From: Minisyncoccota bacterium
GTDB lineage: Bacteria > Patescibacteriota > Minisyncoccia > Phycocordibacterales > UBA12079
Direction: 5' to 3'
DNA length: 64,000 bases
NCBI GenBank assembly: GCA_023140255.1
Contig: JAGLLX010000010.1
Span: 19,774-83,773, forward strand
The stretch's first letter is position 1. Each line of letters begins with the position of its first letter. The notes beneath the pieces are model-generated. The model saw only the letters and a program-made list of their open reading frames with translations. It did no database searches and was not told the origin of the DNA. Shown one piece after another: positions 6,948 to 57,901 of this stretch. The position numbers and the translations under genes were made by a program.

Positions 6948-8567
6948 CTAAATAAATAATTTAACTAAACGAATGTCCTCCCAAGAAATATTATTTGGAA
7001 GGGCTTTTTTAATTGGACTTAATTTATCTCCGCCAACTTTTTTCCAAACCTTAAGTATTTCATCAAAATTTAATAAATCATCTTTTATATATTCAAAACT
7101 AACTCGTTTCTTCCCTTTCTCTTCAGCTAATTTTTCTAAATGACCAACTATTGTAGAAATAGTTAAATTTCGTTCTCTAGCAATATCCTCTATCATCATT
7201 TCTTTAATAATCATTTCTTTAGTAATATCAAAAGTTGAAATTTTTTCTTCTACATAATTTTCGACAACTGAGGCATCAACAAAATCTTTTTGAACTTCTT
7301 TTATATTTCCTTCTGCTTTTAAACGGAAAACAGCTCTTTCAGATTCTTTTTTTAATTCTAAATCAAAATCTAAAATCTCATCGTTCACTTGCAACGCAGT
7401 ATTATTTATTCCCTTTAAATATAATCCATTAAGTGATCTAACTCGAGAAAGAGCTACATAGCCCATTCCTGCTACAAAAGACTTAGAAAGATCAATTTCA
7501 GCTAAATCAAGACTCATTCCTTGGCTTTTATGAATAGTAATCGCCCATGCTAAACGCAAAGGAACTTGAATAATTTTGGCTTTTTGCTTTCCTTCTTCAT
7601 CAATATGCCAAAACTCATCTTCTACCAAAATTTCTTTACCTCTATAAGTTTTTACGACTGGCTGTCCATTACTAAAATCAATAATTGTTCCAAGAGTCCC
7701 ATTTACATAGCCTTTTTCAAAATTATTTTTTATGAACATCACCACAGCTCCTTTTTTTAAATGTAATTCTTCTTGAGCCAAACAACTTTTTTTTAAAGAA
7801 TCTACTAATCTTTTAGTTCCTGTGTCTTTCATTTTATAAATAACAGCAGGAGCTTTAATTTTATTTAGTTCTTGCAGATTCAAAGAATCAACATCTCTAT
7901 TATGTGTATATAGTTTTGTGGGTGTAAATTTAAATTCAGAATATTTTTGTCTTCCTTTTAATACTTCCCAAGTATTTTCGTCCACCCGACTATCTCTTAT
8001 TTCATTTAAAATTTTCAATAAGGAATCATTTTCTTCTTGTCTATATTGTTCTTCTAAATAACAAATATTTAAATCCATATTTGTCCAAATATTTGATTTA
8101 TAAGCAAAATTCATTTCTCCGTCAGCTTTGTTTATAGGAGGTAATTGGAAAAAATCTCCACACAAAATAATCTGCATTCCTCCAAAAGGGTAATCATTGT
8201 GTTTAAACGCCCTACAAATAATATCAATCGCATCTAACTGAAAAGAATGGAGCATTGAAATCTCATCAATAATCAAAACTTGAGTATATTTAAACCTTCT
8301 CTTCAAATACTTTTTTTCTAATAAAGAATCTATATCTAAAGCTGATAATTTATCTTTAATTCCTAAACCAGACCAAGAATGAATAGTCACGCCATTCATA
8401 TGAGTAGCCGCAATTCCAGTAGAAGCCGTTACCCCCACCGGCACGGATTTTTCTTTGAGAAAATTAATATATTGATTAAGTAAATAAGTTTTCCCTGATC
8501 CAGCAGGACCTGTTAAAAAAACATTTTTACCCATTTTTAAAATTTCCAAAGCTTCAGACTGCAACAT
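6948..8567 (-). CDS. PIF1/RecD-like ATP-dependent DNA helicase with a C-terminal extension
   Basis: Walker A GPAGSGKTY, Walker B LIIDE and the QLPP motif of PIF1-type helicases. Confidence 0.65.
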   Translation of the reverse strand: MLQSEALEILKMGKNVFLTGPAGSGKTYLLNQYINFLKEKSVPVGVTASTGIAATHMNGVTIHSWSGLGIKDKLSALDIDSLLEKKYLKRRFKYTQVLIIDEISMLHSFQLDAIDIICRAFKHNDYPFGGMQIILCGDFFQLPPINKADGEMNFAYKSNIWTNMDLNICYLEEQYRQEENDSLLKILNEIRDSRVDENTWEVLKGRQKYSEFKFTPTKLYTHNRDVDSLNLQELNKIKAPAVIYKMKDTGTKRLVDSLKKSCLAQEELHLKKGAVVMFIKNNFEKGYVNGTLGTIIDFSNGQPVVKTYRGKEILVEDEFWHIDEEGKQKAKIIQVPLRLAWAITIHKSQGMSLDLAEIDLSKSFVAGMGYVALSRVRSLNGLYLKGINNTALQVNDEILDFDLELKKESERAVFRLKAEGNIKEVQKDFVDASVVENYVEEKISTFDITKEMIIKEMMIEDIARERNLTISTIVGHLEKLAEEKGKKRVSFEYIKDDLLNFDEILKVWKKVGGDKLSPIKKALPNNISWEDIRLVKLFI

Positions 8568-21191: not shown

Positions 21192-21353
21192 ATGAATCCT
21201 GTTAGATGTTTAGAGAAAATAATAAATTTATTTAAATATAAAAACGGGACCAAAAACATTATTAGTTTAATTTAAAATTATTTACTTTTTGTAAATTATG
21301 AGGGACTTGTCCCGTTAGAGATAATTTACTAGAGGTAAATTATCTCTAACGGG
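21192..21353 (+). promoter_or_regulatory. leader element copy 1: mini-ORF plus inverted repeat abutting the kinase start codon
   Basis: Mini-ORF 21192-21275 (27 aa, MNPVRCLEKIINLFKYKNGTKNIISLI). Then hairpin ATTATTTAC-TTTTT-GTAAATTAT. Then perfect inverted repeat CCCGTTAGAGATAATTTAC-tagag-GTAAATTATCTCTAACGGG ending immediately before the kinase ATG at 21354. Confidence 0.6.
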
Positions 21354-23615
21354 ATGAAAATAAAAACAAAAATAATTTTACCAATAATTTTAGTGGCTGT
21401 AATTGTATTATCAACAGCAACTTTTTATTCATATTTTTTTAATGTCAATACTTTAAATACATCAATTGGGGAACACCTAAATACAACTGTGTCTTCAAGG
21501 TCTCATCATATTGATACTTTTATAGAAGAATTAATAGGAAAAATAAAAATAGCAGCCACGCAAGAAAACTTGACCAACGAAAAACTAGAAAAAATAAAAA
21601 ATTCTAACAGAGAATTTTCAGAAGTGTTCTTGGTAAATCTTGATAAAAAAATAATTAAATCTTCAAGACAAGAGTCTATAGGCTTAGATTGTTCTATTAA
21701 TGATTATCTTGTTAATAAAAAAGATAATGTTTATATGAGAGATGCTTATATTTCTAAAATAAACGAAGAACCATCCATTGCTATTGCTATTTCTCACAAC
21801 AAAGACATATTAATCATTAGGATTAATTTGGAAATTTTAAATGATGTGACTACAAACAAAACAGGATTAGGAAATACTGGTGAAGTATATTTAATTAATA
21901 GTGCTGGGTATACCATTACTCCCCTACAATTTAGTGAAGACACTTTTTTGAAAACAAAAATAGAATCTAAAAATGCTAAGAGTTGTTTAGACACACTAAA
22001 AAACGAAACTGAACATACTGAATATAGAGGAGGGTCTGCAATATATACAAATTATAAAAAAATTGAAGTTATGGGCTCTTACCATCCCTTAAGTATAATG
22101 AACTGGTGTATCTTAGCTGAAATTGATAAATCAGAAGCATTAGCTCCAACAAAAAACTTATTAAAATTCTCTATTATAAGAATTTTGATTATCTTATTTA
22201 TATTTTTTATACTTACTTATTTGATAGCCAGAACTATTAGCAAGCCAATTATTATATTAAGCCAAGGGACAAAAATAATTAAGAACGGTAACTTAGACCA
22301 CAAGGTTGGAACCAATTCAAAAGATGAAATTGGAAGTTTATCAAGAGATTTTGATGAAATGACCGTTGCAATTAAAAAATCACAAATAGAAATTGACAAA
22401 AAAGTTAAAGAGCAGACAAGGGAAATAATAGAAAAACAAAAAGATATTGAAAATCAACAAGAAGCTATCCTAAATGTACTAGAAGATGTAGAAAATGAAA
22501 AAAAGAAAACAGAAATTGAACGAGATAAAATAGACGCTATTCTTCATAGTATTGGTGATGGAGTTTTTGTAGTTGATAAAGATAAAAAAATTACTATTTT
22601 TAATAATATTGCTGAACAAATATCAGGATTTAACAAAGAAGATGTGTTAGGAAAAAACTATCTAGATATTTTGAAATTTATTCATGAAAAAGACAGAACT
22701 CCTAATAATGATTTTATTGAAAAAGCTTTTTCTTTAGGGAAAATTCAAATGATGAAGAACCATACTTTACTTATTAAAAAAGATAAAAGTGAAGTTCCTG
22801 TAGCCGACAGTTCTGCTCCAATAAAAGATAGTGCTGGAAATATAATTGGATGTATCGTTGTTTTCAGAGACGCGACAGCTGAAAGAAAAGCTGAACAAAT
22901 AAAATCAGATTTCGTGTCTATCGCCTCTCACCAACTAAGAACTCCTTTAACGGGAATTCAGTGGGTAACAGAAAGACTGTTAAAACATTCAACTGCTTTG
23001 CCAGAAAAAGAGCAGCAATATATTAAAGATATTAACCTTTCTTCCAAAAGACTATCCACCCTTGTAGACAGTCTATTAAATGTTTCTAGAATTGAAGGAG
23101 GAAAAATAACTATAAAGCCTGAAAAAATAGAGTTGATTGATTTTATTAAAAGCTATCTAACAGAGACTAATCCTTTAACAGAAGCAAAAAATATTAGTTT
23201 AAAATTTAATACACACCCAGAAAATTTAGAAATATTGACTGATCGTTCAGGTATAAGAAATATTGTTCAGTCCTTAGTCTCCAATGCGATTGAATACACA
23301 CCTGAAAATGGAAATATAGAAGTTTCTGTTGAGGACAATGTAGAAAAAGATTCTTTCTTGTTTAAAATAAAAGATACAGGGATAGGAATTCCTTCGAAAA
23401 ACCAAGCCACTATTTTTGATAAATTTACTCGAGGAGAAAATGCCCAGCAAGTTAAAACTGATGGAACAGGATTCGGATTATACATTACAAAACAAACAGT
23501 TGATTTATTAGGCGGAAAAATAAGATTTGAATCTATTGAAAACGAAGGAACAACTTTCTTTGTAACCTTACCTAAAATATCCAAAGCTAAAGAAGGCGGA
23601 AAAAGTTTTGTATAA
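21354..23615 (+). CDS. sensor histidine kinase (Cache-like extracytoplasmic domain, HAMP, PAS, HisKA, HATPase_c)
   Basis: H-box SHQLRTPLTGI. N/G1/G2 boxes in NAIEYTPENGNIEV ... DTGIGIP ... GTGFGLYI. Confidence 0.85.
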   Translation: MKIKTKIILPIILVAVIVLSTATFYSYFFNVNTLNTSIGEHLNTTVSSRSHHIDTFIEELIGKIKIAATQENLTNEKLEKIKNSNREFSEVFLVNLDKKIIKSSRQESIGLDCSINDYLVNKKDNVYMRDAYISKINEEPSIAIAISHNKDILIIRINLEILNDVTTNKTGLGNTGEVYLINSAGYTITPLQFSEDTFLKTKIESKNAKSCLDTLKNETEHTEYRGGSAIYTNYKKIEVMGSYHPLSIMNWCILAEIDKSEALAPTKNLLKFSIIRILIILFIFFILTYLIARTISKPIIILSQGTKIIKNGNLDHKVGTNSKDEIGSLSRDFDEMTVAIKKSQIEIDKKVKEQTREIIEKQKDIENQQEAILNVLEDVENEKKKTEIERDKIDAILHSIGDGVFVVDKDKKITIFNNIAEQISGFNKEDVLGKNYLDILKFIHEKDRTPNNDFIEKAFSLGKIQMMKNHTLLIKKDKSEVPVADSSAPIKDSAGNIIGCIVVFRDATAERKAEQIKSDFVSIASHQLRTPLTGIQWVTERLLKHSTALPEKEQQYIKDINLSSKRLSTLVDSLLNVSRIEGGKITIKPEKIELIDFIKSYLTETNPLTEAKNISLKFNTHPENLEILTDRSGIRNIVQSLVSNAIEYTPENGNIEVSVEDNVEKDSFLFKIKDTGIGIPSKNQATIFDKFTRGENAQQVKTDGTGFGLYITKQTVDLLGGKIRFESIENEGTTFFVTLPKISKAKEGGKSFV

Positions 23616-28836: not shown

Positions 28837-29664
28837 CTACTGTTGATTTAAAAAACCTTTTGCTTTCTTTAATTGGTCTTTAATCATACTGTCTAAAGGT
28901 TTAAATCCGTTCGCAGGTTTAGGTTTCTCTAAAAGATCACAGCTATCATCCCATTCTTCTTCCCAAGGTTGTAGACACGCTTCTTTAGCTTCACACCAAA
29001 GATAACCTGCTGATCCAATACAACCATGTTCATCTTTGTCTCCTCCAACTCTTTGTTCTTCACGAACTTCTTTTATATCCTCTCTTACATTTGCAACATC
29101 TTCTCTTCTGTCTTTATTTAATTCAGCTAATTCTTCTTTAGCTTCTTCGTCTCCGTCTTTAATTTTTTGAATTAAACCAGCTCTTTCCTCGTTAAATTCT
29201 TGTATTTTTTGCTTTCGTTCTTCTATCTTAGCCTTTTGTTCAGTTAATCTTTCCTGAAGCTTTTCTGCAACTTCTGATTTTTTAGCCTCTGCTTTTTCTA
29301 CAAATGATTCTGCTTTTGCAATCATTCGTTCAGCTTTTGCCTGAGCCTCTTCTGTATCAGCACTCTGGGCAAAAGCTTCAGCTAACTCCATTCTTCTATC
29401 AGCAAAAGCTAAGGCCTTTTCTACTCTTTTTTCTGGATTAAAAGTAAAAGTCATAGAAAAACTTTCTTTTACCCCTATCCACCATAAACCTATATTTGAA
29501 GGAACTTTAACCTCTTCTAATTCTTCTTCTAATATTAATTCTGGTACAGGCATACCTTCATCATAAACTACAGGATCAACTGGCATTTCATCTTCAGCTT
29601 GAACTGTTATAGCCCCTAAAAAAGCCATAGAAAAAATCATTGTGTATAATAATATTTTTTTCAT
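28837..29664 (-). CDS. secreted coiled-coil protein with a C-terminal Cys-containing domain
   Basis: Signal peptide, long E/K/A-rich coiled coil, C-terminal HGCIGSAGYLWCEAKEACLQPWEEEWDDSCD. Preceded by leader element copy 2. Confidence 0.6.
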   Translation of the reverse strand: MKKILLYTMIFSMAFLGAITVQAEDEMPVDPVVYDEGMPVPELILEEELEEVKVPSNIGLWWIGVKESFSMTFTFNPEKRVEKALAFADRRMELAEAFAQSADTEEAQAKAERMIAKAESFVEKAEAKKSEVAEKLQERLTEQKAKIEERKQKIQEFNEERAGLIQKIKDGDEEAKEELAELNKDRREDVANVREDIKEVREEQRVGGDKDEHGCIGSAGYLWCEAKEACLQPWEEEWDDSCDLLEKPKPANGFKPLDSMIKDQLKKAKGFLNQQ

Positions 29665-29764
29665 CCCGTTAGAGATAATCTGCTTTTGACAGATAATCTT
29701 AAGTTAACTAATAATTTTTTATTCCCGTTTTATTTATTCTTTCTAAATCTCTAACGGGATTCAT
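29665..29764 (-). promoter_or_regulatory. leader element copy 2 (minus strand): mini-ORF MNPVRDLERINKTGIKNY (29708-29764) plus the inverted-repeat arm abutting the gene ATG
   Basis: Minus-strand reading: ATGAATCCCGTTAGAGAT ... ATTATCTCTAACGGG then ATG (gene start at 29664). The upstream arm is the first six codons of the mini-ORF. Confidence 0.6.
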
Positions 29765-29849
29765 CTTTTTGTTATCCAATCATCTTTAATGATTGATTAT
29801 AAATTAATAACTATATACATATTATTTTACACCATTTTATTAAAAAACT

Positions 29850-29882
29850 AAACAGGTCAAATATGACCCGTTTAGTTTTTAC
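29850..29882. terminator. hairpin terminator
   Basis: aaactaaacaggtc-aaatat-gacccgtttagttt. Confidence 0.55.
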
Positions 29883-57226: not shown

Positions 57227-57817
57227 TTACTTATTTTCTAAAATCTTAAAATCTTTTTTAAGATCATCACGACTAAATGAGTTATATAATGCCACGGCGG
57301 GATGAAGTAAAGGAACAATTTTTATTGCCCCATAAGAAGTTTTAACCTCAAAAGATTTTCCTCTCATTTTTCCAATAGTTTCAATTTCTAAATCTAAATT
57401 AAATTTTTTCATTATATATTCTGCAGAATACCTACCCAAAGTTGCAATAATTTTAGGTTGAATAATTTCTATTTGCCTATCTAAAAAAGGCCCATAAATT
57501 TCAATTTCTTCTTCAGACGGGTCTCGATTAGCAGTTGGTCTGTCTTTAACTATGTTTGTAATATAAATATCTTCCCTTTTTAAATTAATTGAACTTAAAA
57601 GTTCATCTAAAACCCTCCCTGAAGCTCCACAAAAAGGCTGTCCTGTTTGAGCTTCATTTTTTCCAGGAGCTTCTCCCACAAACATAATTTTTGCATTATG
57701 ATCCCCTGCTCCAATGACAGGAAAAACTTTGTTTTTAATTCTTTCTGTATACAAAGGAGATTTTTTAAGATTTAAAATTTCATCCTTTATTTGTTTCATT
57801 TGTTCTGTTTTATTCAT
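57227..57817 (-). CDS. uracil-DNA glycosylase, family 4
   Basis: GEAPGKNEAQTGQPFCGASGRVLDELL motif. Preceded by leader element copy 3. Confidence 0.8.
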   Translation of the reverse strand: MNKTEQMKQIKDEILNLKKSPLYTERIKNKVFPVIGAGDHNAKIMFVGEAPGKNEAQTGQPFCGASGRVLDELLSSINLKREDIYITNIVKDRPTANRDPSEEEIEIYGPFLDRQIEIIQPKIIATLGRYSAEYIMKKFNLDLEIETIGKMRGKSFEVKTSYGAIKIVPLLHPAVALYNSFSRDDLKKDFKILENK

Positions 57818-57901
57818 CCCGTTAGAGATAATTTACAAAAAGTAAATAATCTTAATTTAATTGATAATTTTTAACCCCGCCAAATCTCTAACGAGATTCA
57901 T
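57818..57901 (-). promoter_or_regulatory. leader element copy 3 (minus strand): mini-ORF MNLVRDLAGLKIIN (57857-57901) plus hairpin plus the arm abutting the UDG ATG
   Basis: Minus-strand reading: ATGAATCTCGTTAGAGAT ... ATTATTTAC-TTTTT-GTAAATTATCTCTAACGGG then ATG (57817). Confidence 0.6.

Follow-up and report, generated by a model that had tools for sequence, protein, structure and literature searches.

The subject of this analysis is a short DNA element found in three copies within a 64,000-nucleotide stretch of contig JAGLLX010000010.1 (assembly GCA_023140255.1) from a Minisyncoccota bacterium; the whole of this stretch is referred to as the window. Copy 2 stands immediately ahead of a gene for a secreted protein. 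We consider it likely (probability roughly 0.78) that copy 2 is a non-autonomous member of a palindrome-bounded family of selfish elements that spans the Patescibacteria and resembles miniature inverted-repeat transposable elements (MITEs). Copy 2 is short and without a transposase gene, it ends in inverted repeats, and it belongs to a set of multiple copies with filled and empty sites. The candidate for an autonomous partner is a relative that has identical ends, is under purifying selection and encodes a GIY-YIG nuclease. No published description of this family was found in the literature searched, the nearest being GIY-YIG open reading frames (ORFs) in non-intron insertions of Candidate Phyla Radiation (CPR) rRNA genes (PMC11270868). 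The novelty apparently lies in a different enzyme and a start-codon target, within a MITE-like or REPIN-like kind of element.

Copy 2 and its relatives in the window

The features needed in what follows are listed below. Copy 2 is described throughout on the minus strand, and class A denotes the type of miniature to which copies 2 and 3 belong.

29764-29708, minus: mini-ORF of 18 codons, ATGAATCCCGTTAGAGATTTAGAAAGAATAAATAAAACGGGAATAAAAAATTATTAG, translated as MNPVRDLERINKTGIKNY and then stop
29759-29764, minus: ATGAAT, an upstream direct repeat of the first bases of the host gene (ATGAA) plus T; it opens the mini-ORF
29747-29758, minus: 5' arm CCCGTTAGAGAT, a terminal inverted repeat; the identical arm is found in more than 60 elements on Patescibacteria contigs
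29723-29729, minus: internal AACGGGA, kept across class A copies (alignment A2, see below)
29678-29694, minus: subterminal hairpin ATCTGT-CAAAA-GCAGAT, one base ahead of the 3' arm, from the predicted fold
29665-29676, minus: 3' arm ATCTCTAACGGG, adjoining the host start codon, whose first two letters (A and U) lie within a 14-bp stem
28837-29664, minus: host gene, a secreted coiled-coil / DUF5667-like protein of 275 amino acids (aa), with its true start ATG at 29664-29662
21192-21353, plus: copy 1, composite, ahead of a histidine kinase gene (21354-23615)
57818-57901, minus: copy 3, a 78-nt class A element plus ATGAAT, ahead of a uracil-DNA glycosylase (UDG) gene (57227-57817)

A preliminary description of this DNA had reported an 18-aa mini-ORF followed, after 43 nt, by the host ATG, and both the coordinates and the translation are correct: the mini-ORF opens with ATGAATCCCGTTAGAGAT and closes with TATTAG, the 43-nt gap (29707-29665) has GATTATCTCTAACGGG as its 3' end, and the ATG of the host ORF follows GATTATCTCTAACGGG directly. 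The two arms are exact reverse complements over 12 nt, or 14 bp of stem if the adjoining AT is counted, and the distance from arm to arm is 94 nt. The coding content consists of the one 18-codon, non-conserved ORF, which has no GIY-YIG match. RNA structure prediction, proposed earlier as a check, returns the 14-bp arm stem, with a minimum free energy for the 121-nt region of -25.2 kcal/mol compared to -11.7 +/- 2.6 for shuffled sequences (z = -5.2).

It had also been claimed that copy 2 is homologous to copy 1 along its length, and that this marks a conserved element rather than a chance palindrome. Both claims are borne out. The arm+ATG motif (up to three mismatches) matches the window 6 times where 0.94 matches are expected, a number that none of 100 shuffles reached; for ATGAAT+arm the 6 matches compare to an expectation of 0.05. 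The six matches are both arms of three elements, at approximately 21.2, 29.7 and 57.9 kb. Similarity extends beyond the 12-nt arms: with the arms removed, the interior of copy 2 gives a local alignment score of 50 against copy 1 (shuffles, 19.5 +/- 3.3) and 39 against copy 3 (shuffles, 15.7 +/- 3.0), with 0 of 2,000 shuffles reaching the observed score in either comparison. The genes that follow the three copies – for a histidine kinase, a secreted DUF5667-like protein and UDG – are unrelated.

Copy 1 is more elaborate. After ATGAAT come an outer 5' arm in degenerate form (CCTGTTAGATGT, 21198-21209), an interior resembling that of class A, GGGACTTGT, and a nested, perfect palindrome of 43 nt (arms 21311-21322 and 21342-21353) that forms a 24-bp hairpin of -33.6 kcal/mol. 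The same nesting and the same GGGACTTGT junction recur outside the window at L098 (minus strand, about 7208-7355; loci outside the window carry L numbers). The internal AACGGGA of copy 2 can form an alternative pairing with UCCCGUU in the 5' arm, or else it may have been left behind by a former 3' arm; the predicted fold of copy 1 has the equivalent block paired with the 5' arm.

A scan of copy 2 for a sense-strand promoter from which the host mRNA would begin inside the 3' arm found none, the best hexamers located by hand having 4 of 6 matches; a scan for U-tract terminators found none within the element, and the sole terminator-like site lies upstream (29855-29868). Searched against Rfam 15, the whole window gave only tRNAs at gathering thresholds, and a permissive scan of 29600-29830 gave nothing below E = 1. 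The antisense strand of copy 2 (29686-29715, plus) carries a strong promoter-like TTGACA-18-AATAAT, with 11 of 12 matches, facing away from the host gene. The site overlaps the variable loop of the hairpin and is not conserved in other copies.

Start codons, flank repeats and empty sites

In nearly every element one arm adjoins the start codon of a long ORF, an ATG or, rarely, a GTG, and ahead of the other arm stand the first bases of that ORF in a second copy, plus T. Pairs of flank and host start include ATGAAT...ATGAA, ATGGAT...ATGGA, ATGCAT...ATGCA, ATGCAAT...ATGCAAG (L039) and ATGAAAT...ATGAAAT (L041). Among elements with six-base left flanks the same two post-ATG bases occur on both sides in 46 of 51 (permutation p < 5e-5), the agreement including GA/GA seven times, CA/CA twice and ATGCAA in L039. 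Left flanks of five bases (ATGAT) were found in five elements and of seven bases in three; with flanks of 5 or 7 nt the ATG is out of frame with the arm. The repeat is host-derived, of 4-6 nt, and usually ATGAA or ATGGA. It may be a true target-site duplication or a duplication of 1-3 bp beside ends that include AT (ATCCCG...CGGGAT).

The orthologous loci L094, L095, L105 and L108 carry the same 78-nt element: the left flank is ATGCAT in all four, and the host start is ATGCAT in one and ATGAAT in three. By such comparisons, the two copies of the start region would seem able to diverge after insertion. In L001 and L070 the 5' flank is ACTTGT in place of ATGAAT.

The host genes of copies 2 and 3 have orthologues that are free of the element. 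For copy 2 the orthologue is at L090 (55% identity), in the context ParB - TGT - acidic protein - DUF5667 - response regulator, and the locus there reads tatttaaaaaatATGAAAACATTATTATATACAATGATT, without an element. The orthologue begins MKTLLYTMIFS, compared to MKKILLYTMIFS in the window, at the equivalent ATG, and it is on this ground that the true start of the host gene of copy 2 is placed at 29664. The NCBI annotation of the same protein (GCA_030636105.1, DAOVXP010000004.1) starts at an internal Met eight codons late (267 aa compared to 275 aa), and start-codon miscalls are probably systematic at such elements. For copy 3, five syntenic holB-UDG-alaS loci (L109-L113; 84-88% amino-acid identity) all lack the element, and their UDG starts fall 1-3 residues from that in the window. 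A further UDG gene, identical to that of the window, lies on a 980-bp contig from short reads (L115, Logan SRR13892605) that starts within copy 3, at TTTTTGTAAATTATCTCTAACGGGATG, which fits a break of the assembly at a repeat.

Because syntenic orthologues are without the element, and because the flank repeat is host-derived, copy 2 behaves as an insertion and not as an ancestral regulatory leader. Nested and tandem copies are known from copy 1 and L098. The earlier idea of a leader belonging to the downstream gene is not supported: the host genes are unrelated, orthologues exist without the element and, as described next, the same arms surround a GIY-YIG gene elsewhere.

A full-length unit, its miniatures and their distribution

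At L066, L072, L085, L023, L039, L054, L063 and L079 the same 12-nt arms enclose a complete GIY-YIG ORF. This full-length unit, of 274-278 nt, is a single gene for a nuclease of 86-94 aa of the UPF0213/Slx1 type (Pfam PF01541, E = 1.3e-15); at L066 (5738-5454, minus), for example, the protein reads MNPVRDNEMHYVYVIRS...YTGVTNDLRKRF...KRYLKNRLKRFLSLTG and then stop. The arms are part of the gene. After ATG-AAT the first codons are those of the 5' arm (NPVRD), giving the N-terminus MNPVRD, and the last codons, CTA TCT CTA ACG GGA TGA, are the 3' arm, giving the C-terminus LSLTG-stop. The TGA stop overlaps the host ATG (ATGA).

A protein search (E <= 1e-8) returned at least 2,849 homologous clusters. 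Among the best 120, 114 end in LTG and 102 in FLSLTG, and at least 83 start with M-x-PVRD; in the remaining ones the start is called at an internal Met, which gives 86 aa. In public annotation the protein is frequently mislabelled 'excinuclease ABC subunit C'. Between the orthologous insertions at L066, L085 and L072 dN/dS (the ratio of nonsynonymous to synonymous substitution rates) is 0.04-0.10, and the nuclease is thus under purifying selection. The protein diverges to 48-66% identity and the arm sequence is invariant across phylum-level lineages. Since residues 1-9 form a low-confidence coil outside the fold of the AlphaFold model (mean predicted local distance difference test, pLDDT, 86), protein structure does not account for the nucleotide invariance of the 5' arm.

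The nearest solved structure by sequence is the UPF0213 protein BH0048. When folds are compared, BH0048 and the Slx1 nuclease domain come closest (template-modelling score, TM, ~0.6; root-mean-square deviation, rmsd, ~2 Å; E ~2-4e-3; probability 1.0), with I-TevI (E = 2.8) and UvrC being far poorer matches. Slx1 is a branched-DNA endonuclease. At 86-94 aa the protein encoded by the full-length unit is a catalytic domain only, without a separate DNA-binding domain.

Elements with paired arms in the scanned loci fall into size ranges of 38-124, 180-192 and 274-278 nt, and the miniatures (38-192 nt) share the arms of the full-length unit. A second type of miniature, class B (115-124 nt), consists of about 70 nt of the 5' coding end as far as TTACGG, a hairpin of the form GG-N5-tetraloop-N5-CC, a T, and the 3' arm. 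The sequence of the hairpin stem differs from copy to copy. In the full-length unit at L066 (5454-5738, minus), as RNA or DNA, the LRKRF codons pair with the LKRF codons near the C-terminus in a long-range helix, and the class B hairpin (e.g. L046, L019) is this helix minus its loop of about 150 nt. Class B miniatures are thus internal deletions of the full-length unit; forms of 180-192 nt retain N- and C-terminal codons only. What class A has in common with the rest of the family is the arms, the placement at start codons, the repeated flank and a hairpin separated from the 3' arm by one base. The 3' end of class A (ATT + arm) matches the full-length 5' end (arm + AAT) read in reverse complement, and class A may be a flipped derivative. 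Orientation relative to the host gene is constant in class A (0 of 22 flipped); in class B two of 16 are flipped (L001 and L028, different loci).

Conservation of structure was assessed in alignment A2, made from 18 different class A copies, in which 99.6% of the arm stem is paired and all four one-sided changes produce G·U. In the subterminal hairpin four of six pairs covary, with 16 double-change cells and 96% of cells paired; none of 500 shuffles reached the covariation score, and slid partners reduced pairing to about 40%. Compensatory double changes in the arms themselves were seen in three elements, two being in L010 and one in L079. One-sided arm transitions leave a sense-strand G·U in 13 cases and A·C in 3 by our own tally; the raw tally of the script, which includes doubtful pairs, is 16 versus 7. 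The structure appears to be under selection on one strand. Taken together, invariant arms and a hairpin conserved in structure only suggest a sequence-specific partner for the arms and, as the active form, a folded single strand, either RNA or the sense strand of DNA.

The distribution of the arms was determined by scanning one genome per species (596 Gb) with the 17-mer ATTATCTCTAACGGGAT. The scan gave 88 genome loci, with Patescibacteria lineages accounting for at least 47 of the 80 titles listed: these include Saccharibacteria, Paceibacteria, Nomura-, Yanofsky-, Jorgensen-, Davies-, Moranii-, Nealson- and Taylorbacteria. Several metagenome-assembled genomes (MAGs) carry multiple loci, up to five per MAG. 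By our arithmetic about 70 chance matches to a 17-mer are expected in 596 Gb, and these account for the scattered single matches outside Patescibacteria; complete two-arm elements are mostly on contigs labelled Patescibacteria. A Desulfosalsimonadaceae MAG (L019) has at least two complete elements plus a third 3' arm, and complete or near-complete elements also occur in L030 (Pseudomonadota), L033 (Planctomycetales) and L055 (Elusimicrobia). Elements in bins other than Patescibacteria reflect either binning contamination or horizontal transfer. A published survey places a GIY-YIG protein among the genes predicted to have been donated by Patescibacteria (PMC12455944). A scan of metagenomes added 17 class A loci. 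Phage origin was considered and rejected, there being a single match in 2.9 million viral contigs.

Mechanism, alternatives and known systems

The mini-ORF invites a functional reading, and a meaningful leader peptide had been implied. Across 49 miniatures, however, the upstream ORF can have as few as 4 or as many as 39 codons, and only MNPVRD – that is, ATG-AAT plus the arm – is conserved; in some copies the ATG and the arm are in different frames. The mini-ORF is a by-product of the duplicated ATGAA and arm being in frame, and not a conserved peptide. In 37 of the 49 miniatures more than 20 nt separate the stop from the host ATG, and for this reason tight termination-reinitiation was rejected as a general property of miniatures. 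In every element the 3' arm together with the start codon (in copy 2, ATCTCTAACGGGATGA, 29662-29676, minus) has its first frame stopping at TAA 4 nt before the host ATG and its second at the overlapping TGA; the third continues in frame into the host ORF. Sequestration of a Shine-Dalgarno (SD) sequence was likewise rejected: SD-like motifs precede just 3 of 42 long ORFs in the genome of the window, and neither ATG of the element has such a motif upstream.

A different feature marks many of these starts. A TATAAT-like hexamer (at least 5 of 6 matches) lies 5-9 nt upstream of the 5' ATG of the element in 17 of 48 cases (8 perfect), compared to 67 of 402 (13 perfect) for the first ATGs of long ORFs at the same loci (Fisher p = 0.003), so that TATAAT-proximal starts make up 35% of element-bearing genes and 17% of the others. 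Given this spacing many host genes look leaderless, with the element at the first bases of the transcript.

These observations can be assembled into a mechanism. The nuclease would mobilize miniatures in trans. It would recognize, on one strand, the invariant arms together with the hairpin that is conserved in structure only, the DNA most likely being folded as a single strand or as a cruciform. Once the element had inserted, the original initiation context of the host gene, often a leaderless 5'-terminal AUG, would drive the ORF of the element. In the transcript the 14-bp arm stem would close the insert and bury the host AUG, and host translation would rely on ribosomes that enter at the upstream AUG, open up the stem and then re-initiate. 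Coupling would be tight in full-length copies, in which the ATGA overlap can hand ribosomes to the host ORF, and loose in miniatures. Candidate routes for host expression in miniatures are melting of the stem by upstream-AUG ribosomes with loose re-initiation, processing of the stem, and breathing of the helix. The mini-ORF would have no function of its own.

More tentatively, and with appreciable doubt, these elements might constitute an undescribed class of mobile element: a palindrome-bounded Slx1-like GIY-YIG gene with MITE-like derivatives that targets the first bases of often leaderless genes, captures the start codon and promoter of the host, and preserves host expression by a device at the RNA level – either the ATGA overlap, or an arm stem that loops out the insert between two copies of the start codon. 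Such a device would be a functional analogue of an intron or bypass element, operating at translation initiation.

Several points weigh against regarding copy 2 as a mobile miniature. No transposition event, excision product or within-population polymorphism was observed; element-free orthologues could be explained by loss. The flank bases disagree in 5 of 51 elements, and the repeat, which starts with ATG in every case, can be 4, 5 or 6 nt long, an unusual behaviour for a target-site duplication. No full-length copy is present in the 64-kb window, where a tblastn search with the nuclease yielded only an 8-residue, arm-encoded match. The enzyme is a bare GIY-YIG domain without a recognizable DNA-binding module, and we know of no GIY-YIG transposase in bacteria. 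The class A interior contains no detectable remnant of the nuclease ORF beyond the arms; it is about 90% conserved between genomes and fixed in orientation, which could indicate a function at the level of the host. The G·U bias could derive in part from strand-biased C-to-T mutation. Finally, the distant stops of most miniatures mean that tight termination-reinitiation cannot be the general route to host expression.

In a different account the palindrome is primarily a host cis-element at start codons – for example a site of RNA processing, a translation-control helix or a protein-binding site – and the GIY-YIG gene is a secondary invader that homes into its centre, so that miniatures are targets or exapted sequences and not deletion derivatives. 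Homing endonucleases typically recognize pseudo-palindromic sites, minimal palindromes of 38-43 nt with almost no interior do exist (window 21311-21353; L098), and the arms are far more constant than the nuclease. The conserved and covarying class A interior and hairpin, the sense-strand G·U bias and the fixed orientation would also be expected of such an element. We nonetheless judge this account improbable: a host element would have to serve functionally unrelated genes while being wholly absent from their syntenic orthologues, and it leaves aside the repeat of the host's own first bases, which points to insertion, the nested and tandem copies, and the fact that class B demonstrably keeps both remnants of the coding sequence and the long-range helix present in the full-length unit.

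A regulatory leader of the attenuator or ermC type, in which translation of the 18-aa peptide toggles the pairing of the 5' arm between the internal AACGGGA and the 3' arm, is very unlikely. Its ingredients are present – the host AUG is within the 14-bp stem, the 5' strand of the stem is within the mini-ORF, and class A conserves an internal CGGGA block capable of pairing with the 5' arm – but the peptide is unconserved past MNPVRD, ranges over 4-39 codons and is out of frame in some copies. There is neither terminator nor U-tract in the element, SD motifs are largely absent from the genome (3/42), and no Rfam family matches; moreover, the element precedes unrelated genes in many lineages and is missing from orthologues.

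That the inverted repeats are recombination sites at which an invertase flips an internal promoter, phase-varying the downstream surface protein, is hardly credible. A short inverted-repeat-flanked segment ahead of a secreted protein does bring such invertons to mind, as do the antisense promoter-like site and the flipped class B copies L001 and L028. However, that site falls in the variable hairpin loop and is unconserved in the family, the region holds 2 promoter-like sites where shuffles predict 2.7, and class A orientation is identical in 22 of 22. Inversion would destroy the frame of the arm-bounded nuclease ORF, and housekeeping enzymes such as UDG are among the hosts. An integron attC site was rejected: the order GTTAGAG ... 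CTCTAAC is the reverse of R'' (RYYYAAC) ... R' (GTTRRRY), and both cores miss the consensus at one position.

If copy 2 is a miniature of a mobile family, then thousands of Patescibacteria entries named 'GIY-YIG nuclease family protein' are the coding part of a selfish element, and both mis-set start codons and an abundant class of short repeats that breaks assemblies are explained. It would be the first case known to us of a bacterial repeat family that targets and duplicates start codons, and it would tie a lone Slx1-like nuclease to palindromic DNA. The family would further provide a natural experiment on how SD-poor, leaderless-rich genomes tolerate a structured insert of 80-280 nt between promoter and ORF, and a marker of horizontal exchange among ultra-small bacteria.

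Among known systems the closest in form are bacterial MITEs such as the Correia elements of Neisseria and the pneumococcal RUP. Like these, the present elements are 40-200 bp in length with terminal inverted repeats that fold into a long stem, have short flanking direct repeats, occur in many copies, are co-transcribed with neighbouring genes and share their ends with a longer coding relative. They differ in that this relative is a lone GIY-YIG nuclease domain and not a DDE transposase, that insertion is exactly at the start codon, and that the flank repeat is the start codon plus 1-3 nt, and not a fixed TA or 8-9 bp. The REPIN-RAYT system offers a second parallel: a small nuclease gene between inverted palindromic units, dispersal of those units as gene-less hairpin doublets, strand-specific hairpins and long persistence in a lineage. 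Here, however, the enzyme fold is GIY-YIG/Slx1-like, not HUH Y1, the elements lie at the 5' ends of genes, at the start codon, and not in 3' intergenic space, and the arms are translated within the enzyme.

The GIY-YIG homing genes of T4-like phages (Seg, mobE; PMC2988022) are also small selfish genes between host genes that use host transcription and have local hairpins affecting translation. Seg and I-TevI, in contrast, have a separate DNA-binding domain and a single cognate site, neither of which is found here, and the present unit is bounded by inverted repeats ahead of many unrelated genes. With IS200/IS605 insertion sequences and their miniatures (palindrome-associated transposable elements, PATEs) the family shares subterminal hairpins whose structure is conserved, an asymmetry between strands, a target that is short and specific, and a very compact size, but those elements have no terminal inverted repeats or target duplication and use an HUH transposase. 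Lastly, the overlap of the full-length nuclease stop with the host ATG, and the burial of an AUG in a helix of which the other strand is translated, recall translational coupling in the MS2 coat/replicase genes and the ermC leader. The differences are that the arrangement here is made by insertion and recurs at unrelated genes, and that the upstream ORF of miniatures usually ends 20-100 nt earlier.

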